64,000 nucleotides of DNA from an uncultured Candidatus Saccharibacteria bacterium. GTDB taxonomy: Bacteria > Patescibacteriota > Minisyncoccia > UBA6257 > 2-01-FULL-56-20. The stretch is taken from positions 11,639-75,638 of the forward strand of contig CAZYEL010000003.1 of assembly GCA_964646415.1 (NCBI GenBank), read 5' to 3'. The translations under genes were made by a program, and so were the position numbers. Under the pieces are notes generated by a model that had not been told where the DNA came from, ran no database searches, and saw nothing but the letters and a program-made list of their open reading frames with translations. Below are positions 3,166 through 59,122 of this stretch, in pieces. Numbering within the stretch: position 1 is the stretch's first letter; every line of letters begins with the position of its first letter.

Positions 3166-4914
3166 ATGAACAAAGAACAGCGTCAATGTAAAAATTGTAA
3201 TTCTCCGTTTATAATCGAGCCCGACGATTTTTCGTTCTATGAAAAGATAGGCGTACCCGCCCCGATGTTCTGCCCAGATTGCCGGTTTCAGCGGCGGCTT
3301 TTGTGGCGGAATGAGCGGACGTTCTACCGGCGCGCGTGCGACCTCTGCAAGCGAAACATGATAGCGGTGTACCCCGCCGAAACACCCTTTCCTGTTTACT
3401 GCCAAAAGTGCTGGTGGTCGGATAAATGGAATCCGCTCTCTTATGGGCAAGACGTAGATTTTTCGAGGCCATTTTTCGATCAAGTAAAAGAGTTGTGGAG
3501 CAAAGTCCCCGCGCTCTCCATGCAAAACGACGACGGCATCGCAAGCACAAATTCCGAGTACGCCTACGATTGGGCCTTCAGCAAAAATACTTATATGAGC
3601 GTGTGCGGCTGGTTCACAGAAAACTGCCTCTATTCCTACTACGCCTGCTATGACAAAGATATTATGGACTGCTACTACGTAAGCAATTCCGAACTTGTAT
3701 ATAAAGTGACTTCTGCCGATAAGTGCTATGCCTCCAAATACTGCACACAAGTTTACGACTCCACTGACTGCACGCTTTCGCACGATCTCCGCGGATGCTC
3801 GCACTGTACGATGTGCGTAGGTCTCCGGAATAAGCAATGCTGCATTTTAAACCAGCAATATTCGAAAGAAAAATACGCGGCGAAACTCAAAGAGCTCAAT
3901 CTCGGAGATCGCGAATCGCTCGCCGCACACACGAAAGAATTCCAAGAATTTTCGCTCCGCACACCTAGAAAATTCGCCGACATGTTGAAATCAGTCCTCT
4001 GCACAGGAGACAACCTACTCGCATCCAAAAATTCCAAAAACTGTTTCTATGCAATGAAACTAGAGAACTGCCGTTACATAGCAAACGTGGACGAGGCAAA
4101 AGATTCATACGACTGCAATAACACCGGACGCCCCGAACTTTGCTATGAATCCGTAACCCCGGATATGTCCAAGGGAAACAAATTCGGGGTTTTCTGCTGG
4201 AAATGCACGGAGGCGGAATATTCGAACAACTGCCACTCATGCGTAAGCGTAATGGGATCTTCGGGGCTAAAACACACCTCCTACGCAATTTTGAATAAAC
4301 AGTATGACAAAGAATCCTTCGGCAAGCTCCGGACGCGCATCATCGAACAAATGAAGCGCGCCGGCGAGTGGGGAGAATTTTTTCCGCATACGCTCTCGCC
4401 GCACGCATATAACGAAACCGCCGCGCTTGAATGGTTCCCGCTCGAAAAAGAAGCCGCGCTGAAGCAAGGATACAGATGGAAAGATGAAGAGAAAAAGGAA
4501 TATTCGCCTACGAAAACTGCGGCAGACCTACCTAAAACCATCGCGGAAACCGATGATTCGATATTAAACGACATCATTGAATGCGCGCATAAAGGAACAT
4601 GCAACCACAAATGCACTACTGCGTTTCGGGTTGTGGCGGCCGAACTCCAGCTCTACCGCAAGCTCGATATTCCGATTCCCATGCTCTGCCCGAACTGCAG
4701 GCACTACGCACGGCTCGCGATTCGAAATCCTGCGAAACTATGGAAGCGCGCATGCCAGTGCGCCGGAGCAAGCTCCGAAAACGGAATCTACAAAAACACT
4801 GTCAATCATAGTCATGGCAATGGTCATTGTGAAGTTTCTTTTGAGACCTCGTTCGCACCCGAAAGACCAGAAATCGTATATTGTGAAAGTTGTTATAACA
4901 GCGAGATTGCCTAA
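3166..4914 (+). CDS. Cys-rich multi-zinc-ribbon protein, paralog family member (582 aa)
   Basis: CKNCNSPFIIEPDDFSFYEKIGVPAPMFCPDCRFQRRLLWRNER N-terminus, YAILNKQYDKE module, and C-terminus ...IVYCESCYNSEIA. Confidence 0.8.
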   Translation: MNKEQRQCKNCNSPFIIEPDDFSFYEKIGVPAPMFCPDCRFQRRLLWRNERTFYRRACDLCKRNMIAVYPAETPFPVYCQKCWWSDKWNPLSYGQDVDFSRPFFDQVKELWSKVPALSMQNDDGIASTNSEYAYDWAFSKNTYMSVCGWFTENCLYSYYACYDKDIMDCYYVSNSELVYKVTSADKCYASKYCTQVYDSTDCTLSHDLRGCSHCTMCVGLRNKQCCILNQQYSKEKYAAKLKELNLGDRESLAAHTKEFQEFSLRTPRKFADMLKSVLCTGDNLLASKNSKNCFYAMKLENCRYIANVDEAKDSYDCNNTGRPELCYESVTPDMSKGNKFGVFCWKCTEAEYSNNCHSCVSVMGSSGLKHTSYAILNKQYDKESFGKLRTRIIEQMKRAGEWGEFFPHTLSPHAYNETAALEWFPLEKEAALKQGYRWKDEEKKEYSPTKTAADLPKTIAETDDSILNDIIECAHKGTCNHKCTTAFRVVAAELQLYRKLDIPIPMLCPNCRHYARLAIRNPAKLWKRACQCAGASSENGIYKNTVNHSHGNGHCEVSFETSFAPERPEIVYCESCYNSEIA

Positions 4915-4960
4915 TTCCACTATTCGCTCATTCGCGCGAATGAGCGAATAAGAAACCACA

Positions 4961-6772
4961 ATGAACTCCGAAACCAGAACCACTTCGACAAGCTCAGTGC
5001 AAGCTTGCCAAAACTGTAAACAACCCTTCACAATTGAACCGGAAGATTTTACGTTCTATGAAAAGATAAAAGTTCCGCCACCCACGTGGTGCTGGCGGTG
5101 CCGCGCCATACGGCGAATGTCGTTCCGGAACATGACACACCTCTATCCGCGCATATGTGCCGCGACGGGGAAAAAGATCTACACGCTCATGCCGCCAGAG
5201 GCACCTATGCCGGTGTATAACTTGGAATACTGGATGAGTGACGCATGGGACCCTCTATCCTACGGACACGACTATGATTTCTCAAGACCGTTTTTCGAGC
5301 AGTTCCAAGAACTATATCATCAAGTACCCTACGGAATGATTACTTCAGTAGGGTCAGTAAATAGCGACTACAGTTCTACTATCTGGTCTAAAAATTGCTA
5401 TTTGTGCTTTGATGGGGGTTTCGGCGAAGACAGCGCTCATAATGTTACTCTCCAGCGGAGCAAACAATGTTTCGATACCATCAACTGCAAAGTCTGCGAG
5501 CTATGCTACTTCTCCATCAATATAAGCAATTCGTACAAAGTGTTCTTTTCCCGGAACTGCAGCTCATGCAGCGAAGTATGGTTTAGTCAGGACTGCATAG
5601 GTTGCACAAATTGTTTTGGCTGTACGGGATTACGCAACAAAAGTTATTTCATATTCAACGAACCTCACACCAAAGAGACCTACAAAAGAAAACTGGAGGA
5701 ACTAGGAATAAATTCATGGTCAGGAATTGAGATTTTAAAGCGGCGAGTTATGGAAGTTTGGCGAAAGTATCCGGTGAAATATATGCACAGCGTACAAGCG
5801 AAAGGGTGTACCGGTGACTACCTCTTTCATGCCAGCGAACTGCGCAACTGTTTCTTTGCTGACGGCGCACAAAACTGCGCACACTCTCAAAGCATCATTT
5901 ATAGTCCGATAAAAGATTGCATGGACATCACTTCTTCGGGTGTCACTATAGAATTGTGCTATGAAACGTGCTGCTCGGGGGCAGACCTTTCAAAGGTTTT
6001 CTTTTGTATGGAAGTTAATTCCGTCACCAACTCGCAGTATTCAATGGCGTGCAGCAACAGCAATAATTTGTTCGGATGTGTCGGGGTTCGAAAGAAAAAC
6101 TACTGCGTCTTGAACAAGCAATATTCGAAAGAAGAATACAACGCACTTGTTTCCAAAATCATCGAGCATATGGACAAAATGCCATACGTGGATGCGAAGG
6201 GGCGCGTGTATAAATATGGCGAATTTTTCCCGCCAGAGATGAGCCCCTTTGGATACAACATCACACAGGGACAGGAATATTTCCCAATGACGCAACAAGA
6301 AGCGGAAGCGCAGGGACTTAAATGGCGAGAACCGGAGAAAAAATCATATACCACAACAAAGACATCAAAAGATTTGCCGGACACCATCGGCGAAGTGGGA
6401 GATGAAATAACAAGCGAAGTAATTCAATGTGCGCACGATGAGAAAGGGAATCACCCGTTTGATTGCGCACCAAGCTGTTCCACCGCGTTCCGTATCATTC
6501 CTCAGGAAATCCAATTTTACCGACAAATGAAATTGCCGATCCCCCGACTTTGCTTCCACTGCCGCCACTTTGAGCGGGTCGCATGGCGAAATAAACCAGC
6601 ACTGTATTCCCGGAAGTGCGCATGCGCGGGAACAAAATCAGGAGAATACCAAAACGGAGTTCTGCACTTCCACGGCGACAAACCCTGCCCGAATGAGTTC
6701 GAAACCTCGTTCGCATCGGATAGAGCAGAAATAGTATATTGCGAACAATGTTACAACTCAGAAATCGCGTAG
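4961..6772 (+). CDS. Cys-rich multi-zinc-ribbon protein, paralog family member (603 aa)
   Basis: CQNCKQPFTIEPEDFTFYEKIKVPPPTWCWRCR N-terminus, FGCVGVRKKNYCVLNKQYSKEEY module, and C-terminus ...IVYCEQCYNSEIA. Confidence 0.8.
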   Translation: MNSETRTTSTSSVQACQNCKQPFTIEPEDFTFYEKIKVPPPTWCWRCRAIRRMSFRNMTHLYPRICAATGKKIYTLMPPEAPMPVYNLEYWMSDAWDPLSYGHDYDFSRPFFEQFQELYHQVPYGMITSVGSVNSDYSSTIWSKNCYLCFDGGFGEDSAHNVTLQRSKQCFDTINCKVCELCYFSINISNSYKVFFSRNCSSCSEVWFSQDCIGCTNCFGCTGLRNKSYFIFNEPHTKETYKRKLEELGINSWSGIEILKRRVMEVWRKYPVKYMHSVQAKGCTGDYLFHASELRNCFFADGAQNCAHSQSIIYSPIKDCMDITSSGVTIELCYETCCSGADLSKVFFCMEVNSVTNSQYSMACSNSNNLFGCVGVRKKNYCVLNKQYSKEEYNALVSKIIEHMDKMPYVDAKGRVYKYGEFFPPEMSPFGYNITQGQEYFPMTQQEAEAQGLKWREPEKKSYTTTKTSKDLPDTIGEVGDEITSEVIQCAHDEKGNHPFDCAPSCSTAFRIIPQEIQFYRQMKLPIPRLCFHCRHFERVAWRNKPALYSRKCACAGTKSGEYQNGVLHFHGDKPCPNEFETSFASDRAEIVYCEQCYNSEIA

Positions 6773-7229: not shown

Positions 7230-7480
7230 AAAATTAGCAGTGAGTCCAGAGAAACCCGCCGTCGCATAAAGCTATGGCGTGGTAACAGGGGAAGCGGGTG
7301 TAAATCCCGCACAGTGCCGCTACGGTGAAGCCCGCCTACGTTCATAAAGAACTTCGGCGAGGCGCAGTCCGAATACCAACCTCTGGAAAGTTCGTGTTTG
7401 CTTCTCGGTGCAAGAGGCAACTGATACTCGTCCCATCAGGTTTTCTCTTGCCGCGTGCAAGAGTTTTTTGTTTTTCGTGT
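7230..7480 (+). promoter_or_regulatory. cobalamin (B12) riboswitch with terminator expression platform
   Basis: GGTAACAGGGGAAGCGGGTGTAAATCCCGCACAGTGCCGCTACGGTGAAG matches the RF00174 core (GGGAAG..GGTG.AAA.CC...CCGC.AC.GTGA). A B12-box-like GCAGTCCGAATACC follows. A hairpin ctcttgccgcgtgcaagag plus a T-run lies at 7446-7476, upstream of the CDS at 7534. Confidence 0.65.
7446..7476 (+). terminator. intrinsic terminator (riboswitch OFF-state hairpin)
   Basis: ctcttgc cgcg tgcaagag followed by ttttttgttttt. Confidence 0.5.
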
Positions 7481-7533
7481 GCGAAAAACACCCTGAGCAA
7501 GCGAAGCGTGTCGAAGGGTATACCTCTACTTTT

Positions 7534-9393
7534 ATGTCTAAAAAATATATCGAAGTGCTCGTGGGTTTCGCGGTCGTAAGCGGTTTGTTTTTTAATGCGG
7601 GAGTCTCGCGGGGCGATACGAACGCCTCAATCGCCTACTTGAAGTCGAAACCGCTCACGGCGTGGACGATTATGGCGCTCGTCGCGGCGGGAGAGTCGCC
7701 CTCGCTTGAGACGCTCAAAACCGTCACGAGCGATAAGGCAATCGACTTTGAGGCGCCCATCTTGGCACTCACCGCCGCAGGCAAAGACCCCCGGAACTTC
7801 GGGAGCGTTGACCTCGTCGCAAAACTCAAAAGTTTCTCCGACGGTGCGCAGCTCGGCGACGCGACCATTTTGAATGACGACGTCTTCGGCATCCTGGCGC
7901 TTCTCTCCGCGGGCGAATCGCGCGAGAGCACGGCTGTTTCGAGTACGCTCCGCTTCGTAAAAGCCCGCCAGAACGGCGACGGCGGATGGGGCTACGCCGT
8001 GGGCGGCACGAGCGACACAAACACGACCGCCGCGGCAGTGATGGCACTCCGCGCGGCGGAAGTGCCCGCGAACGACGCCTCCCTCACGAAGGCAATCGAC
8101 TACCTCAAAGCCGCGCAAAATGGCGACGGCGGATTCCCCTACGACCCCAAGAGCGCGTGGGGCACAGACTCCGACGCCTCCTCGGACGCGTGGAGCATCA
8201 TGGCAATCAAAAGCGCGGGGCAGGACCCCGCAGCGTGGCAAAAAGACGGGAAGTCGCCTGCGAATCACCTCCAAACCCTCCGAGCCGAAAGCGGCGCATT
8301 CACGTACCAGCCGGGCGCGGGCGAAGACGCGTTTACCCCCACGACGACCTCCTACGCGGTGATTGCGCTCGCCAACAAGTTTTTCCCGCTCCGCGTCATC
8401 TCCCCCGCCGCACCGGTACCCGTCCATTATTCCTACCGCATTGAGGGCGCGACTCAAGAACTCTGCGCGGGAGAAGCAGACGGAGTGAATGCAATCGAAT
8501 CGGTTAAGTCAGCCGCGGCCGCATGCGGAATCACCTATCACATACAAGAATCTTCTCTCGGCTCTTACGTGGATGAAATAGCAACAGAAAAAGCCGCCGG
8601 GTCCAAGGGATGGCTTTATTTTATAAATAACGAGCTCGCAAGCGTTGGAGCGGACGCATACCGATTAAAATCCGCGGATGAAATACTTTGGTATTTTGGA
8701 GAATATGGCGCTCTGCCCACGCGCATTACACTCGCGACAACCACAATAGCCGGAGGATCAAACGCCGAAGGGACCGTTGAGTCATACAAAAACGGCGCGT
8801 GGAGCGCGCTTCAGGAAGCTGTGGTTAAATCAGGGCATTCAAGCACAACGACCGGAAGCGACGGAAAATTCTCTCTCTCCTTAAATCCCGGGATTCGCAA
8901 AATTTATGCCGAAAAAACCGGATTTGTAAGAGGCGCGGAGATTAAAGTAACTGTCGGGTCGCTCTCAAGCACAACGCTCGATCTTGAAGTGGACATTCCC
9001 GCATCCACCTCCACGAACTCCGGATCCGGCGGGGGCGGAAATGGAGGCGGGGGCGGAAATCCGGCATCGGGAGAAGTTTCATTCGTAGTCGAAACCGGCA
9101 CATCGGCAAAATCATTGGACTTCGGGAAATTGGATAAGGGAAAACAGCAAAAGAAAAAAATCACGTTGCAAAACAAAGGGCAAGGCACGCTTTCAATAGA
9201 AAGCGCGGTAACCGGAGACGATCTGTTCAAAAGTTATCTTCTCTTAGACGGGAAAACATGGCGGCTTTTCCAAAACTCTGTTACTGCCGGAGCATCTATC
9301 ACGCCCGAAGTGAGAATAGACATTCCTCAAAATTATTCCGGATCCGGCGTTAAAAAGGGCGCGCTTACGTTTTGGGCAACTCAAATTCAATAA
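7534..9393 (+). CDS. surface-exposed putative cobalamin-binding protein: prenyltransferase/terpenoid-cyclase-like alpha/alpha-toroid repeats plus DUF4430 (transcobalamin-like) domain plus Ig-like C-terminal domains
   Basis: N-terminal signal/anchor MSKKYIEVLVGFAVVSGLFF. Repeated QNGDGGWGY / QNGDGGFPY motifs typical of the prenyltransferase-squalene cyclase repeat. DUF4430-like region ...GITYHIQESSLGSYVDEIA...GWLYFINNELASVGADAYRLKSADEILWYFG. Gly-rich linker and beta-rich C-terminus. Sits directly downstream of the B12 riboswitch. Confidence 0.7.
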   Translation: MSKKYIEVLVGFAVVSGLFFNAGVSRGDTNASIAYLKSKPLTAWTIMALVAAGESPSLETLKTVTSDKAIDFEAPILALTAAGKDPRNFGSVDLVAKLKSFSDGAQLGDATILNDDVFGILALLSAGESRESTAVSSTLRFVKARQNGDGGWGYAVGGTSDTNTTAAAVMALRAAEVPANDASLTKAIDYLKAAQNGDGGFPYDPKSAWGTDSDASSDAWSIMAIKSAGQDPAAWQKDGKSPANHLQTLRAESGAFTYQPGAGEDAFTPTTTSYAVIALANKFFPLRVISPAAPVPVHYSYRIEGATQELCAGEADGVNAIESVKSAAAACGITYHIQESSLGSYVDEIATEKAAGSKGWLYFINNELASVGADAYRLKSADEILWYFGEYGALPTRITLATTTIAGGSNAEGTVESYKNGAWSALQEAVVKSGHSSTTTGSDGKFSLSLNPGIRKIYAEKTGFVRGAEIKVTVGSLSSTTLDLEVDIPASTSTNSGSGGGGNGGGGGNPASGEVSFVVETGTSAKSLDFGKLDKGKQQKKKITLQNKGQGTLSIESAVTGDDLFKSYLLLDGKTWRLFQNSVTAGASITPEVRIDIPQNYSGSGVKKGALTFWATQIQ

Positions 9394-9394
9394 A

Positions 9395-9985
9395 ATGGCT
9401 TTTCTCAAGCGGAGAAATCCCCGAGGCTTAGCCTCCGTGGAGGCTAAGCCTCGGTGGCGAGTCCTGATTTTTATCGCGTTTTCATTCACGCTTTCCGTTC
9501 CAGCATTCACTCACGCGTACTCAATCGGCATAGCAGTGGAACCGTCCGAACTCGCAATTAGTGTTAGAGAAAACAGTGAAACAACAGCGGAATTTCGCGT
9601 AAAGAATCCCTCGCGCGAAGTCGCGATCTTTGAAGTCTATCCGGAAAACTTCGAAAATTCGGTCGTTCCAATACCCGGACGCTTCACCCTCGAAAGCTCC
9701 GAAGAAAGGAAAGTAACGATCAAAATATTGAAGGGTCAAACAGGCGCGTTTGTGACAAACATAGCAATAGTCGCGAGACCCATAAGCGACCCCATAATCG
9801 GAGTCGGATCGGGCATTAAAATACCGCTCCGCGTATCAATAAAAGAAACACCAAAAAACGGCCTGCTTGCCATGGCAAGCGAAACGGCGTTGCCGGCCAT
9901 AGGAATAGCAATCGCCGCCGCTTTATTAGGCAGTGCGGTTACAATATTTTTGAACCGCAGAAAAACTTCCGCCAAACTGCCGTAA
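9395..9985 (+). CDS. secreted/membrane-anchored beta-rich protein (hypothetical)
   Basis: Signal-like LIFIAFSFTLSVPAFTHA, then an Ig-like body and a C-terminal TM anchor AIGIAIAAALLGSAVTIFL. The start is uncertain. The annotated ATG overlaps the upstream hairpin, and a GTG in the loop is an alternative. Confidence 0.45.
   Translation: MAFLKRRNPRGLASVEAKPRWRVLIFIAFSFTLSVPAFTHAYSIGIAVEPSELAISVRENSETTAEFRVKNPSREVAIFEVYPENFENSVVPIPGRFTLESSEERKVTIKILKGQTGAFVTNIAIVARPISDPIIGVGSGIKIPLRVSIKETPKNGLLAMASETALPAIGIAIAAALLGSAVTIFLNRRKTSAKLP
9421..9454 (+). terminator. perfect 13-15 bp inverted repeat, probable terminator of the B12-binding protein gene
   Basis: ccgaggcttagcctcc gtgg aggctaagcctcgg, 28 nt after the stop. 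A T-rich tract follows about 12 nt further on. Confidence 0.4.
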
Positions 9986-14515: not shown

Positions 14516-14534
14516 ACTTACACCTTATCGCTTT

Positions 14535-14562
14535 CCGCCAAAGGCGGATCCGCCTCCGGCGG
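14535..14562. repeat. GC-rich palindromic element copy 1 (ccgccaaaggcggatccgcctccggcgg)
   Basis: Near-identical copies at 39476-39503 (inside prfB) and 45442-45468. Intergenic here, between the ECF-S-like gene and cobO. Confidence 0.6.
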
Positions 14563-14572
14563 AAAAGCTATC

Positions 14573-15124
14573 CTAATACTCCACTCCCTTCACCCCCGTC
14601 ACGCCTTCCGTATAGGGATGTTTCACCTCGCGCATCTCGGTGACCAAATCCGCCTCCTCGATGAGTTCCGGTGCGGCATTCCGCCCCGTGAGAATCACGT
14701 GCTCCAGCTTTTTATGCGCCCGATGGAGCACTTTCTCCAGCTCCTTTTCCGCGATAAGCCCCAATGCCACCGCGTTATTCACCTCATCGAGGATAACCAC
14801 TTCCCACTTCCCCGACTGAATTTCCTTGTCCGCGAACGCAAGCGCCTCGCGCGCGGCTTTCTCATGCTCCTCCCACGGCAGCTTATCCCCGAAGATTCCC
14901 ACGAACCCTTTCCCCATCTTCACAATTTTAAAATTCGGTGCGAGGAACTTTTGCGAGTCATCCTCCCCGCTCCGCCACGGTCCCTTGATAAACTGCACCA
15001 TAAGCACCTTCTTTCCGTCGCCCACGAGCCGCAACGCCTGCCCCAAGGCGGCGGTCGTTTTCCCTTTTCCGTTACCGGTAAAAACTAGGAGCATGAACCG
15101 CTTGCCGTGCCGCACTGAATGCAC
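14573..15124 (-). CDS. cobO: cob(I)alamin/corrinoid adenosyltransferase (CobO/BtuR type)
   Basis: LLVFTGNGKGKTTAALG P-loop and ..EVVILDEVN.. pattern typical of CobA/CobO. An alternative start MLLVF at 15094 avoids overlap with nrdJ. Confidence 0.7.
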   Translation of the reverse strand: MHSVRHGKRFMLLVFTGNGKGKTTAALGQALRLVGDGKKVLMVQFIKGPWRSGEDDSQKFLAPNFKIVKMGKGFVGIFGDKLPWEEHEKAAREALAFADKEIQSGKWEVVILDEVNNAVALGLIAEKELEKVLHRAHKKLEHVILTGRNAAPELIEEADLVTEMREVKHPYTEGVTGVKGVEY

Positions 15125-38670: not shown

Positions 38671-39733
38671 CTAAAAGTTCTTTTCCGCCTCCGCTTCCAC
38701 AAACATATCCAGGTCTCCCGCAAGAACTTTATCCACCTGCGAGGTTTCGACTTCCGTGCGGTGGTCTTTCACCAACTGGTAGGGATTCAGCACATAGGAA
38801 CGGATTTGATTCCCCCATTCGGGCTTCGCTTTTACCCGGAGCCCGGAAAGCTCCTCCACATGGTGCCGTTCCATAAGCTGGATAATTTTCGCCTTGAGGA
38901 GGCGGAGCGCATACTCGCGGTTCTGCTGCTGGCTGCGCTCCACGCGCGCGCCCACCGTAATCCCCGTAGGGAGGTGCGTGACGCGCACCGCGGTTTCCAC
39001 TTTGTTCACGTTCTGCCCGCCGGGACCTCCTGCGCGCGAAAACTCCCACTTCAAATCATCCTCGGGGATCTGGACTTTCGATCCCTCAACCGGCGGCAGG
39101 TCCGGCACAACTTCGACGAGCGCGAACGCCGTGTGGCGGAGCTTCTTGGGTGAGAAGGGGGAAATGCGGACAAGGCGATGCACGCCGGATTCTTTCTTCA
39201 GATATCCGTACGCATACTGCCCTTTTATTTCGACTATGCGCCCGCGGGGATTCTCGTCCACAATTCTCGCCTTCCAGTTCATCCGCTCCGCGTACCGCAG
39301 GTACATCTCCCCGAGCATCCGCGCCCAATCCTCCGCGTCTTCCCCTCCCGCGCCCGGGTACACCGAAACAATCGCGGCTTGCCCGTCGTATTTTCCCTTG
39401 AAAAGTTCCTCCAATTCAAACGCCCGGAACTTCCGCCGCGTTGCATAATACAAATTCTCATCAAATGATTTCTCTCCGCCGGAGGCGGATCCGCCTCCGG
39501 CGGAAAGCGCGGCGATGCCCGTTTCAATTTCCTGGTAACGGGTAACGAGGTCGCGGAGGATGCCAAGCCGCTTGATTTTCTCGTCCGCCGAGATGCGGTT
39601 CTGCCAAAAACCCGGCGCACTCATCGCCGCTTCGAGCTCCGTTATCTCTTTTTCCTTCGCTGCGAGGTCAAAGACGCCCGCTTAACCGGCGGGCTTCGGT
39701 TGCAAGTTCCTCAAGTTGCGATTTGAAATCCAT
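38671..39733 (-). CDS. prfB: peptide chain release factor 2 with programmed +1 frameshift
   Basis: SPF and GGQ motifs. ORF0 MDFKSQLEELATEARRLSGRL ends at the in-frame TGA in CTT TGA C (minus strand, 39667-39673). A +1 shift joins it to the main ORF (MSAPGFW...). Confidence 0.85.
39476..39503. repeat. GC-rich palindromic element copy 2, in-frame inside prfB
   Basis: ccgccggaggcggatccgcctccggcgg is a perfect 28-nt palindrome. It encodes the Gly/Ser-rich insert AGGGSASGGE. Confidence 0.6.
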
Positions 39734-39768: not shown

Positions 39769-39840
39769 AGCCGGTGGTCGGATTTGAACCGACGACCCAC
39801 GCTTTACGAAAGCGTTGCTCTGCCACTGAGCTACACCGGC
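39769..39840 (-). tRNA. tRNA-Thr (anticodon CGU)
   Basis: Folds as GCCGGUG UA GCUC AGUGGCA GAGC A ACGCU UUCGUAA AGCGU GGGUC GUCGG UUCAAAU CCGAC CACCGGC U. All four stems are Watson-Crick. CCA is not encoded. Confidence 0.8.
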
Positions 39841-43919: not shown

Positions 43920-45374
43920 TCAAAGCTCCTTCCGGGGTCTCATCAGCGGATAAATCACCGTCTCGCGAATCGGTTTGTCCATAAGGAATGCGAAGAGCCG
44001 CTCGGAAAGCCCGAAGCCCGCAATCGGCGGAAATCCATACTCCATCGCGCGCAAGAATTCCTCGTCGAGCTGCTGGGCTTCTTTGTCACCCGCCTCCCGA
44101 AGCTTCATTTGTTCCTCGAACCGCGCGCGCTGGTCCTCCGGGTCGTTCAGCTCCGACCAGCCGTTCCCCAGCTCCGTGCCGCAGGCAACAACTTGCGTCC
44201 GCTCCACGATACGGGGGTCATCCGCAACCCGCTTTGCGAGCGGCGAAACATCCACCGGCGTATGTATGAGAAACGCGGGCTGGATGAGGTGGGGACGCAC
44301 GGTTTTCTTATAAATAAGGTCTATTAAGCGACCCTTCCCCGCAAAGCGCTCCGGGGCAAGCTTCAGCTTTTCCGCGCGCGCGCGCAGGTCAGCCTCGCTC
44401 GCATCAAGAGGATCAATCTTATTCGCCTCCTTGAACGCCGCGACGTACTCGACGGTTTCCCACTTTTTCCCCCATTCGATATTCATCCCTTGATACTCCA
44501 TTACAAGAGACCCGGTCGTCTTTTGGATAACTTTTTTATACATGTCCTCCACCAGCTTCATCAAATCGCGGTAATCGGCGTACGCCCAGTAGAACTCGAG
44601 CTGGGTATAGTCCTGGAGGTGTTCACGGTCGATTCCTTCATTGCGGAAAATGCGCCCGATTTCGAACACTTTTTCGTATCCGCTCGCCATGAGCTTCTTC
44701 AGCGGAAGCTCGAGCGCGATGCGAAGATAAAAATCCATGTCGAGCGCATTGTGATGCGTCACAAACGGTTCCGCATCGCCCCCACCGGGAATCGCTTCAA
44801 GCGTTGAACCCTCCATCTCCAAGAATCCCTTTTTGTTCATGTAGTCCCTGACGGAACCCCAAAAAACCGCTTTCTTCCGGAACATTTCCTCGACATCCTT
44901 ATTTAAAAAAATGTCGAGGTATCGCTCGCGGAGGCGGGTTTCCGTGTCCTCGACGCCGTACCGCTCCGAAGGAATCGGGCGGAGCGACTTTGAAGCGAGC
45001 GTCAGCGTCTTCACGTCAATGCTTTGCTCGCCGCGCTTTGTGGTGAAGAGCATGCCGGTGACGGAGACAAAGTCTCCGCGGTCGAGATTCGCTTTCCAGA
45101 GCGGAAAATCTTTAAGACTTCCCTCTTTGAGCACCGCCTGAAAGGAACCACTTCCGTCGCGGATGTCTATGAAAATGATGCTCCCCTGGTCGCGGATACT
45201 CATCACCCGGCCCGCGAGCGAAACCTTTTTCTTCGCCTTCTCGAGCGCCGCAAATTTCTCCCGCGCCTCCCCGAGGGCGTGCGTGCGCGGCACACTCGCC
45301 GGATAGGGGTCAACGCCCGCAGCTTTAAGCGCCTCCAACTTTTTCCGCCGCTCGGCGATAAGGTCATCCAACAT
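43920..45374 (-). CDS. lysS: lysine--tRNA ligase (class II)
   Basis: 484 aa. OB anticodon-binding domain plus class II motifs (..FLEMEGSTLEAIPGGG.., ..GFGLSERL..). Confidence 0.9.
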   Translation of the reverse strand: MLDDLIAERRKKLEALKAAGVDPYPASVPRTHALGEAREKFAALEKAKKKVSLAGRVMSIRDQGSIIFIDIRDGSGSFQAVLKEGSLKDFPLWKANLDRGDFVSVTGMLFTTKRGEQSIDVKTLTLASKSLRPIPSERYGVEDTETRLRERYLDIFLNKDVEEMFRKKAVFWGSVRDYMNKKGFLEMEGSTLEAIPGGGDAEPFVTHHNALDMDFYLRIALELPLKKLMASGYEKVFEIGRIFRNEGIDREHLQDYTQLEFYWAYADYRDLMKLVEDMYKKVIQKTTGSLVMEYQGMNIEWGKKWETVEYVAAFKEANKIDPLDASEADLRARAEKLKLAPERFAGKGRLIDLIYKKTVRPHLIQPAFLIHTPVDVSPLAKRVADDPRIVERTQVVACGTELGNGWSELNDPEDQRARFEEQMKLREAGDKEAQQLDEEFLRAMEYGFPPIAGFGLSERLFAFLMDKPIRETVIYPLMRPRKEL

Positions 45375-45441: not shown

Positions 45442-45468
45442 TTAACGCTTTCCGCCGAAGGCGGATTC
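45442..45468. repeat. GC-rich palindromic element copy 3 (ccgccgaaggcggattcgcctccggcg)
   Basis: Intergenic between greA and lysS. Shares the flanks tttccgcc...aaaagc with copy 1. Confidence 0.55.
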
Positions 45469-45488
45469 GCCTCCGGCGAAAAAGCTAT

Positions 45489-45950
45489 TCACTCTATCTT
45501 CGTAATCTTGTAAGCCGTCTTCCCCGAGGGCGTCGTTACATCCACCGCATCGCCTATCTTGTGATTCAAAAATGCCCTCCCCAGCGGAGACTCGTCGGAA
45601 ATTTTCCCTTCATCGGGTTTTGCGTCGTAGGGACCCACGATGGTGTACCGCATCGCCTTTCCGTTTTTCTCAACCGTCACCGTAGCGCCCACCCGCACCG
45701 CGCCGCCCGGACCCTCTTTTTCAATCATGGTCGCGCGCTTCAAAAGCGCCTCGAGCTCAAAGATGCGGCCTTCAATAAGGTTTTGTTCCTCGCGCGCCTC
45801 CGCGTATTCGGCGTTTTCCGAAAGGTCTCCGTACTCCTTCGCGCGCTTCAGGTGCTCCGCAACGCGGGCACGCCCCTCGCCTTTCAGTTTATCCAACTCC
45901 TCTTTTAACTCATTGAACCGCTCCGGCGTAAGATATTGCGTTTCTGGCAT
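45489..45950 (-). CDS. greA: transcription elongation factor GreA
   Basis: 153 aa. N-terminal coiled coil plus C-terminal FKBP-like domain (..GKISDESPLGRAFLNHKIGD..). Confidence 0.85.
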   Translation of the reverse strand: MPETQYLTPERFNELKEELDKLKGEGRARVAEHLKRAKEYGDLSENAEYAEAREEQNLIEGRIFELEALLKRATMIEKEGPGGAVRVGATVTVEKNGKAMRYTIVGPYDAKPDEGKISDESPLGRAFLNHKIGDAVDVTTPSGKTAYKITKIE

Positions 45951-58327: not shown

Positions 58328-58915
58328 CTACTCTACCTTCTGCGCTTTTATTTTCTCTATTTCCAAAAACCCTCCGCGCGCGCCCGGAACCGCCCCTCGC
58401 AAAAGCAGAATATTTTTCTCTTTATCCACGCCCGCCACCACGAGATTCTTCACTGTTACGCGGTCGACTCCCATGTGTCCCGCCATGCGCCGGCCGGGAA
58501 TCACGCGCTGCGGCGTGGTGTTCCCGATAGACCCCGGCATGCGGTGCCGGTTTTTTTGTCCGTGCGTTTTCGGCCCCCCGCTGAAGCCGTGCCGCTTCAC
58601 CACGCCCTGGAAACCCCGCCCCTTCGTGGTGCCGCTCACTCGCACCATATCTCCTTCGCTGAATGCCCCCACGGTAACCACATCCCCTTTCTTGAACGGA
58701 AACTCCGCAGGGACTTTCCCGCCGGAGGCGAACCCGCCTTTGGTGGAGAATTCTCTTTTATATTTCCCCAGAGCGAGCTGCACCGCTTCATAACCGTCTT
58801 TCGCCGCCGTGCGCATGAGCGAAACCGTATTCGGCGCAGCCTTAATCACAGTGACGGGAATCACCTTTTTATCCTTCCAAATCTGGTCCATTTTTAATTT
58901 TTTACCGAGGATGAA
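58328..58915 (-). CDS. rplC: 50S ribosomal protein L3
   Basis: MFILGKKLKMDQIW...KGRGFQGVVKRHGF. Confidence 0.85.
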   Translation of the reverse strand, partial: FILGKKLKMDQIWKDKKVIPVTVIKAAPNTVSLMRTAAKDGYEAVQLALGKYKREFSTKGGFASGGKVPAEFPFKKGDVVTVGAFSEGDMVRVSGTTKGRGFQGVVKRHGFSGGPKTHGQKNRHRMPGSIGNTTPQRVIPGRRMAGHMGVDRVTVKNLVVAGVDKEKNILLLRGAVPGARGGFLEIEKIKAQKVE

Positions 58916-59122
58916 CATAAAGTTACTAAAAATCGCCCAAGGAGACCCGGGCGATCGGTCAATCCTTGTGAAAACACCCACCTATGAATAGGCGATGTCC
59001 ATTAAAGCGACAGGAAGATAATAAGCTGCTTTCGGCGTGCTGTCAACGGGAACAATGCAAAAAGCGCATACGCGCCCTTGGGGCGCGTATGCGGACTCTT
59101 TCGTTCCCTGCGCCGGGGAAAA

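Follow-up and report, generated by a model that had tools for sequence, protein, structure and literature searches.

What kind of sequence can sit both between genes and inside an essential one is the question raised by a GC-rich palindrome in the 64,000-nucleotide stretch of DNA analyzed here (the window), where it recurs in intergenic spacers and, in frame, within prfB, the gene for release factor 2 (RF2). From the comparisons set out below, we consider it likely that the window sequences are copies of a very small, selfish insertional repeat, 30 bp long and composed of two inverted hairpin units.

A search of all 64 kb with the 28-mer, allowing up to 3 mismatches, returned exactly 3 matches, against 0 in 100 dinucleotide-preserving shuffles, in agreement with the two intergenic copies and one in-frame prfB copy of the original prediction. 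The matches lie at 14535-14562 (2 mismatches), 39476-39503 (perfect), and 45452-45479 (3 mismatches); the first two positions stand as first given, and the third had been placed 10 nt too low, at 45442-45468. Copy 1 (14534-14563, intergenic and assigned to neither strand; nhmmer E 1e-13) reads TCCGCC-AAA-GGCGGA TCCGCC-TCC-GGCGGA and begins 9 nt past the stop of a minus-strand ORF (14573-15124) that we take, reading its translation by eye, to be cob(I)alamin adenosyltransferase-like (cobO-like), and 18 nt ahead of the start of the next minus-strand ORF. Copy 2 (39475-39504, minus strand; nhmmer E 3e-12) lies inside prfB and is a perfect palindrome, as had been claimed, over 30 nt rather than 28: TCCGCCGGAGGCGGATCCGCCTCCGGCGGA. 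Copy 3 (45451-45480, again assigned to neither strand; nhmmer E 1.7e-10) reads TCCGCC-GAA-GGCGGA TTCGCC-TCC-GGCGAA, the closing pair of its second unit being a compensatory T..A, and occupies the greA-lysS spacer, 8 nt past the stop of greA (45489-45950, minus strand; Pfam GreA_GreB on the identical locus L002) and upstream of lysS (43920-45374, minus strand; Pfam tRNA-synt_2 on the same locus). Every gene that flanks a window copy is encoded on the minus strand. Between the two intergenic copies, the similarity extends beyond the element itself: a common 43-nt unit, cgcttTCCGCCrAAGGCGGATyCGCCTCCGGCGrAaaagctat, spans 14529-14571 and 45446-45488 with 3 differences, which bears out the flanks said to be common to two copies. 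The motif CGCTT abuts one end of all 3 intact window copies.

A profile of the family also matched 58714-58751 (nhmmer E 2e-4), inside rplC (58328-58918, minus strand; ribosomal protein L3, 196 aa per the public-record annotation). The segment at 58718-58747 on the minus strand, which differs from the 30-mer at 4 of its 26 fixed positions and reads (F)STKGGFASGG(K) in the translation FSTKGGFASGGK, is probably a decayed fourth copy; this assignment is tentative because the L3 loop that holds it is hypervariable among relatives and has no clean indel.

Other inverted repeats and structured elements lie elsewhere in the window. A different perfect palindrome with 16-nt arms, CCGAGGCTTAGCCTCC gt GGAGGCTAAGCCTCGG (9421-9454), falls within the N-terminal codons of ORF 9395-9985 (MAFLKRRNPRGLASVEAKPRW...) and may be an in-frame palindromic insert of a different family; a search of 252 loci and of viral contigs turned up no further copy of it. 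An AT-richer perfect 30-nt palindrome (TATTCGCTCATTCGC|GCGAATGAGCGAATA, 4921-4950) sits at the junction of ORFs 3166-4914 and 4961-6772, and a perfect inverted repeat with 13-nt arms (CGCATACGCGCCC ... GGGCGCGTATGCG, 59065-59093) is found a little upstream of rplC within the ribosomal protein cluster. Just two features of the window reached the Rfam threshold, a tRNA and a cobalamin riboswitch; the best sub-threshold match at copy 1 had E > 1. The tRNA gene (39769-39840, minus strand, 71 bits) is directly upstream of prfB and is overlapped by a spurious long ORF, and the riboswitch (7232-7399, plus strand, 34.7 bits, just over the gathering score) is directly upstream of ORF 7408-9393. Further along, the window contains what we take, from an ORF translation, to be a B12-dependent class II ribonucleotide reductase, together with the cobO-like gene.

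The copy within prfB (38671-39733, minus strand) offers the clearest view of an insertion. The RF2 encoded here matches a public record at 100% identity, and the window belongs to a Candidatus Liptonbacteria (CPR) MAG. On the minus strand it is in frame and encodes S-A-G-G-G-S-A-S-G-G, residues 41-50 counted from the ORF start at 39624, and under read-through translation the predicted peptide across the element is ...AALSAGGGSASGGEK.... Precisely these ten residues are missing from the five nearest RF2 homologues, each 307 aa long (74-87% identity), and the nucleotide alignment with the nearest of them, L001, has a clean 30-nt gap with a codon-for-codon match on both sides. In a low-confidence AlphaFold model of RF2 (mean pLDDT 60), residues 41-50 fall where two long helices of domain 1 are joined by an unstructured turn, and alignment to solved RF2 structures is consistent with an insert in this turn. 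Upstream of the insert, the programmed +1 frameshift site CTT TGA C (39667-39673, minus strand) is canonical and is also conserved in both L001 and L002, and the short frame ahead of it, MDFKSQLEELATEARRLSGRL followed by a stop, begins at about 39733. In more distant CPR RF2s (68-70% identity), this domain-1 loop contains different inserts, 7-16 residues long and rich in Gly/Ala (e.g., KSAGDGGTSGGKN), and the DNA of these distant-clade inserts (L127 10001-10951; L128 2393-3355) has no significant similarity to the element. Because that clade carries unrelated inserts there, the RF2 loop is indel-tolerant; the in-frame, loop position originally proposed for the insert holds, with the addition that the loop is one that also accepts unrelated Gly/Ala-rich sequence.

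The same prfB insert was found, identical, in the assembly GCA_016190325.1 and in two Logan assemblies from separate sequencing runs, so it is not an accident of one assembly. The sister Liptonbacteria MAG GCA_016186635.1, whose RF2 is 91% identical in amino acids and 85% in nucleotides (67% at third codon positions), carries the element at the same prfB site with 2 differences, both at free loop bases (GGA/TCC versus AGA/TCT), while the nine other four-fold-degenerate third positions within the element are unchanged. Since the insertion is shared with this sister and absent from the 87% homologue, it is older than the split from the former and younger than the split from the latter, and its stems have been kept at the nucleotide level. 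The insert is therefore lineage-specific, as the original prediction had supposed an alignment of RF2 orthologues would reveal. A second orthologous pair, L112/L122, has ~80% identity in flanking coding DNA and a single change across 57 nt spanning the element, a conservation that either selection on the hairpins or conversion of one arm by the other could explain. A scan of metagenomes for an empty prfB allele gave no match, and the prfB flanks of the uninserted relative are diverged to the 87% level, with no empty site near enough to fix the cut point.

Beyond prfB, the sister genomes differ in which sites are occupied. GCA_016186635.1 has extra copies in its prfB-ftsE spacer, where the window has none, and in a large ORF that lies outside the window; the two prfB-ftsE spacers are too diverged to place the insertion point. 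The next relative (L129/L130) contains no copy of the element in the 21 kb over which it is syntenic, and its greA-lysS spacer is unrelated to that of the window. Comparison of these sequences shows that copies come and go between sister genomes.

We next consider how far the element extends across bacteria. Pattern searches of one genome per GTDB species and of metagenome contigs each matched at least 120 contigs, against a chance expectation for the pattern that we estimate ourselves at ~0.07 matches. The recurrence anticipated in the original prediction is therefore seen at three levels: in this genome, at non-orthologous sites in related Liptonbacteria, and in at least 240 contigs. Part of the apparent constancy of the stems reflects ascertainment, the collection patterns having specified 22-26 positions. 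Among the matches listed, the hosts, by record title, include many CPR lineages, Omnitrophota, Ignavibacteria, the PVC groups Kiritimatiellae and Lentisphaeria, Planctomycetes, Chloroflexota, Desulfotomaculaceae, Bacteroidota, and uncultured Gammaproteobacteria, and the GC content of the loci ranges from 0.33 to 0.70 for genome matches and from 0.30 to 0.72 for metagenome matches. All 120 genome matches listed are MAGs, some on contigs of 0.3-1.6 Mb that we take, from their record names, to be long-read assemblies. A 4.3-kb contig recorded as a Nanoarchaeota archaeon (L106) has a variant copy whose second unit is GCGCC/GGCGC, adjoining ORFs that read by eye as purL- and purQ-like. In a Kiritimatiellae MAG, the element is found within a composite repeat of ~185 nt (L011 4569-4752 and 6390-6572), and another locus (L062, around 7325) has it with the same immediate flanks. 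A phage or plasmid vector was considered and rejected, given 2 matches in 2.9 M viral contigs, 0 in 72,556 plasmids, and a best hit of only E = 0.4 in 50,697 phages.

Among the GTDB genome contigs listed, 66 of 124 elements lie in long ORFs and 56 of these 66 are in the phase TCC GCC ...; the corresponding figures for the metagenome contigs listed are 84 of 122 and 72 of 84. Overall, ~53-69% of the matches listed are within long ORFs and ~85% of those are in the phase that translates, on either strand, as (Ser-Ala-x-Gly-Gly)2. The host genes include those for DnaG, PyrG (CTP synthase), AspRS, UvrB, Mfd, ArsA, a MurA-like enzyme, GH57, and CysRS, and the proposal that the palindrome can colonise essential coding sequence is borne out beyond prfB, with more than half of the family copies listed lying in ORFs, essential genes included. 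Alignment of the AspRS to a Thermus structure leaves an exact 10-residue gap opposite SAKGGSASGG, and the CTP synthase alignment has a gap at the same place as the element. In a Falkowbacteria MAG (L081 2752-2781), our reading of the sequence is that the element adds SAEGGSAFGG to CysRS just before the KMSKS-like motif. Among the genome loci listed, none of the copies that contain an internal stop has in-phase ORFs on its two sides; translation by read-through is accordingly the simplest interpretation, and we rejected translational bypass or excision on the same count. Copies within ORFs more often have the orientation that gives K/E...S than the reverse complement, G/R...F, which suggests filtering at the peptide level. 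What is conserved is the DNA and not the peptide, since the codons are identical in genomes of 30-72% GC. Intergenic copies occur alike in tandem, convergent, and divergent spacers.

We then asked which structure has been conserved. The 30-nt element is made of two inverted 15-nt hairpin units, T-CCGCC-NNA-GGCGG-A followed by T-CCGCC-TNN-GGCGG-A, and can also fold as a whole into one hairpin. Across 140 profile matches, the two-hairpin model was accompanied by 22 double changes, of which 21 restore Watson-Crick pairing, whereas the long-hairpin model counts 1 double change beside 40 single mismatches; these counts are inflated by shared ancestry, as related copies are not independent events. 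The compensatory changes convert C-G to G-C, A-T, and T-A at several stem positions, window copy 3 being among them. Perfect palindromes were not enriched (35 observed versus 33.6 expected), the two loop dinucleotides being complementary no more often than by chance. As the covariation fits the small hairpins and perfect palindromes are not in excess, the conserved fold is two small hairpins in a single strand; a single long hairpin was rejected on the same evidence, so that the palindrome first described stands, with two small hairpins rather than one long one as its conserved structure. On the transcribed (minus) strand, the mismatches of copies 1 and 3 become G-U pairs, with folding energies of -30 and -32.7 kcal/mol, and it is on this strand alone that the two copies are fully paired. 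Among 27 tandem-gene spacers, the transcribed strand folds better in 10, worse in 9, and equally well in 8, and selection at the RNA level was dropped as an explanation because the transcribed strand is not favored across the family.

The sequence immediately outside the element is also constrained. With flanks left free in the scan pattern, the profile has T at -1, -2, and -3 (~0.6, 0.8, and 0.56), mirrored by A on the opposite side, with background composition beyond, so that the usual flanks are TTY on one side and RAA on the other. Since this profile is alike in ORF and intergenic copies, the flanks belong to the DNA rather than to the protein, whether as a preferred target or as part of the element itself. 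A check for direct repeats of 2-8 nt on either side, made at four boundary offsets, found none, and the prfB junctions have none either.

A mobilizing gene or a larger parent was sought in the same loci. With approximate probe sequences, neither the window nor the 240 loci (~1.9 Mb) yielded a RAYT-like ORF, and the only Y1 transposase found there is an IS200-type TnpA (L081 3485-3904), 700 nt downstream of the CysRS element, whose own hairpins are unrelated. A link to IS200/IS605 or RAYT enzymes was accordingly not supported in these loci, the lone TnpA having no counterpart in the others. The fetched loci contain no arrays of three or more units and no longer relative bearing the element's ends, and the composite repeat of Kiritimatiellae, which lacks coding capacity, was rejected as a larger parent element.

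Taken together, these observations show that the element is inserted at new sites as an exact block of 30 bp and leaves no target-site duplication that we could detect. An insertion of ten codons never shifts the reading frame, and one of the three phases, whichever strand is read, gives the flexible linker (Ser-Ala-x-Gly-Gly)2; in this phase, copies survive in protein loops, those of essential proteins such as RF2 included. The stems remain unchanged at synonymous sites and are altered by compensatory pairs. By analogy with REP/RAYT or IS200/IS605 systems, propagation may proceed through the two small hairpins in single-stranded DNA, recognized by a hairpin-specific enzyme acting in trans. 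We hold more tentatively, as somewhat short of an even bet, the fuller proposal of an ultra-small mobile double-hairpin element that is near-invariant across many phyla and possibly DPANN archaea, that is maintained as nucleotide sequence, that routinely supplies a translated (SAxGG)2 linker to essential genes, and that is probably moved by a single-strand, hairpin-specific activity that is horizontally promiscuous or universal.

Several known systems resemble this element in part. Rickettsia palindromic elements (RPEs; Ogata et al. 2000, via PMC10969869) are ~100-150 bp long, fall into several families, and are confined to Rickettsia. Like the present element, they are described there as palindromic, as lying in frame in many unrelated genes, housekeeping genes included, as well as between genes, and as adding a conserved peptide that does not inactivate the host protein (PMC10969869). 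Measured against RPEs as so described, the element here has 30 bp, one sequence, the same peptide on both strands, and hosts in many phyla. REP and REPIN sequences lie outside genes and bear a GTAG or CGTC tag at one terminus; each is specific to a lineage, passes down vertically, and is accompanied by a RAYT gene (PMC3116915, PMC3337134, PMC3733652). The REPIN design, two inverted GC-rich hairpins forming a larger palindrome, is one of which our element is a miniature, and neither shows a target-site duplication (PMC3116915, PMC3337134, PMC3733652). In contrast to REPs, the element is located in ORFs in 66 of 124 and 84 of 122 copies listed, as well as in prfB and probably in rplC in the window; its TTY and RAA flanks have no GTAG/CGTC tag; and its 30-mer is common to CPR, Omnitrophota, Ignavibacteria, PVC, Chloroflexota, Desulfotomaculaceae, and others. 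Such near-identity across phyla is not what lineage-bound REP/RAYT systems show. It differs from MITEs in having no target-site duplication and in its length (30 bp versus ~50-500 bp), and it consists solely of two inverted halves with no matching longer relative in the loci. The original prediction of a REP/MITE-like selfish palindrome is thus kept as to a selfish insertional repeat and set aside as to membership of either class, whose defining features are absent.

Mitochondrial GC clusters and double-hairpin elements occasionally lie within coding regions, and we know of no link between these sequences and bacteria. These clusters, together with the double-hairpin elements and repetitive hairpin-forming elements of the organelles of fungi and sponges, are likewise very short, GC-rich, mobile double hairpins in AT-richer genomes (PMC4478555, PMC2800124). 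Their hosts, however, are organellar, and their sequences are unlike the bacterial element. Palindromic amphipathic repeat coding elements (PARCELs) are ~100 nt or more in length, are arrayed in tandem inside genes for surface proteins, and specify amphipathic helices, whereas the element here is a solitary 30-mer encoding a Gly/Ser/Ala linker. PARCELs are similar to it in being palindromic coding repeats, translatable on both strands, with a distribution that reflects horizontal spread among distant microbes (PMC2996958). Searches of the literature by sequence, peptide, and concept, with most subscription journals outside their coverage, returned no description of the element.

Movement by transposition is not the only way to account for these data. 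Existing copies might instead have seeded new ones through ectopic gene conversion or replication template-switching at microhomologies, with arm-to-arm correction keeping the stems, an explanation that we consider unlikely while giving it real weight. The CGCTT beside all 3 intact window copies is already present in the uninserted prfB allele of L001, target-site duplications are absent, no transposase tied to the element was found in the window or the loci searched, and conversion within a palindrome would itself produce compensatory double changes and leave synonymous sites unchanged. Microhomology, however, gives no reason for one 30-mer to recur in phyla with GC contents of 0.30-0.72, leaves the uniform TTY/RAA flanks unaccounted for, and at prfB is found on one side of the junction only. 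Considerably less probable, in our judgment, is a maintained functional DNA or RNA site, such as the binding site of a conserved protein or a structural hairpin, in place of a purely selfish sequence. Stems that are unchanged at four-fold-degenerate positions in two orthologous pairs, covariation that preserves the small hairpins, and the same sequence in distant phyla would all be expected of such a site; its positions, however, are not conserved between sister genomes, the host genes are unrelated, spacers of all three orientations are occupied alike, RNA pairing favors neither strand (10, 9, and 8 ties), and no Rfam family matches.

That the intergenic copies are terminators or mRNA-stabilizing 3' hairpins, with the prfB copy a chance resemblance among Gly codons, is very improbable. 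Both intergenic copies do lie 8-9 nt past a stop codon and gain G-U pairs when transcribed, but the G-U effect is absent across the family, terminator scans made no call at either copy, and no U-tract follows, T-runs preceding the hairpin and A-runs following it on both strands, as the original prediction had recognized in setting aside classic terminators. The prfB copy is moreover a 30/30 match and a clean insertion, and more than half of the family members listed lie within ORFs. We find it equally hard to credit that the element is an artefact of assembly, library, or contamination, or that convergence at the protein level produced a Gly/Ser linker motif. All genome matches listed are MAGs, the sequence includes a BamHI site and resembles synthetic GGGS linkers, and its core 12-mer appears in the literature only in cloning primers. 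Yet the same insertion is present in independent assemblies, including the Logan assemblies of two separate runs; other matches are on contigs of up to 1.6 Mb, presumably long-read judging by record names; the flanks are collinear with homologues; the codon-phase bias is strong; and orthologous copies bear substitutions. Identical codons across genomes of 30-72% GC, for their part, rule out selection on the peptide only.

Should the interpretation as a selfish 30-bp insertional repeat hold, no shorter element that inserts in frame would be known to us. Through its length, a phase free of stops, and an encoded linker that does no harm, it could reside in essential genes, among them those for RF2, aminoacyl-tRNA synthetases, primase, and UvrB. 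That genomes of 30-72% GC from distant phyla carry nearly the same sequence would point to a shared mobilizing or maintaining activity in groundwater and sediment communities that hold many CPR and Omnitrophota lineages, and the element could serve as a 30-nt marker for recent insertions and gene flow in MAGs. It would also explain a class of Gly/Ser 'loop insertions' in CPR proteins and mark naturally validated, insertion-tolerant sites in essential proteins.
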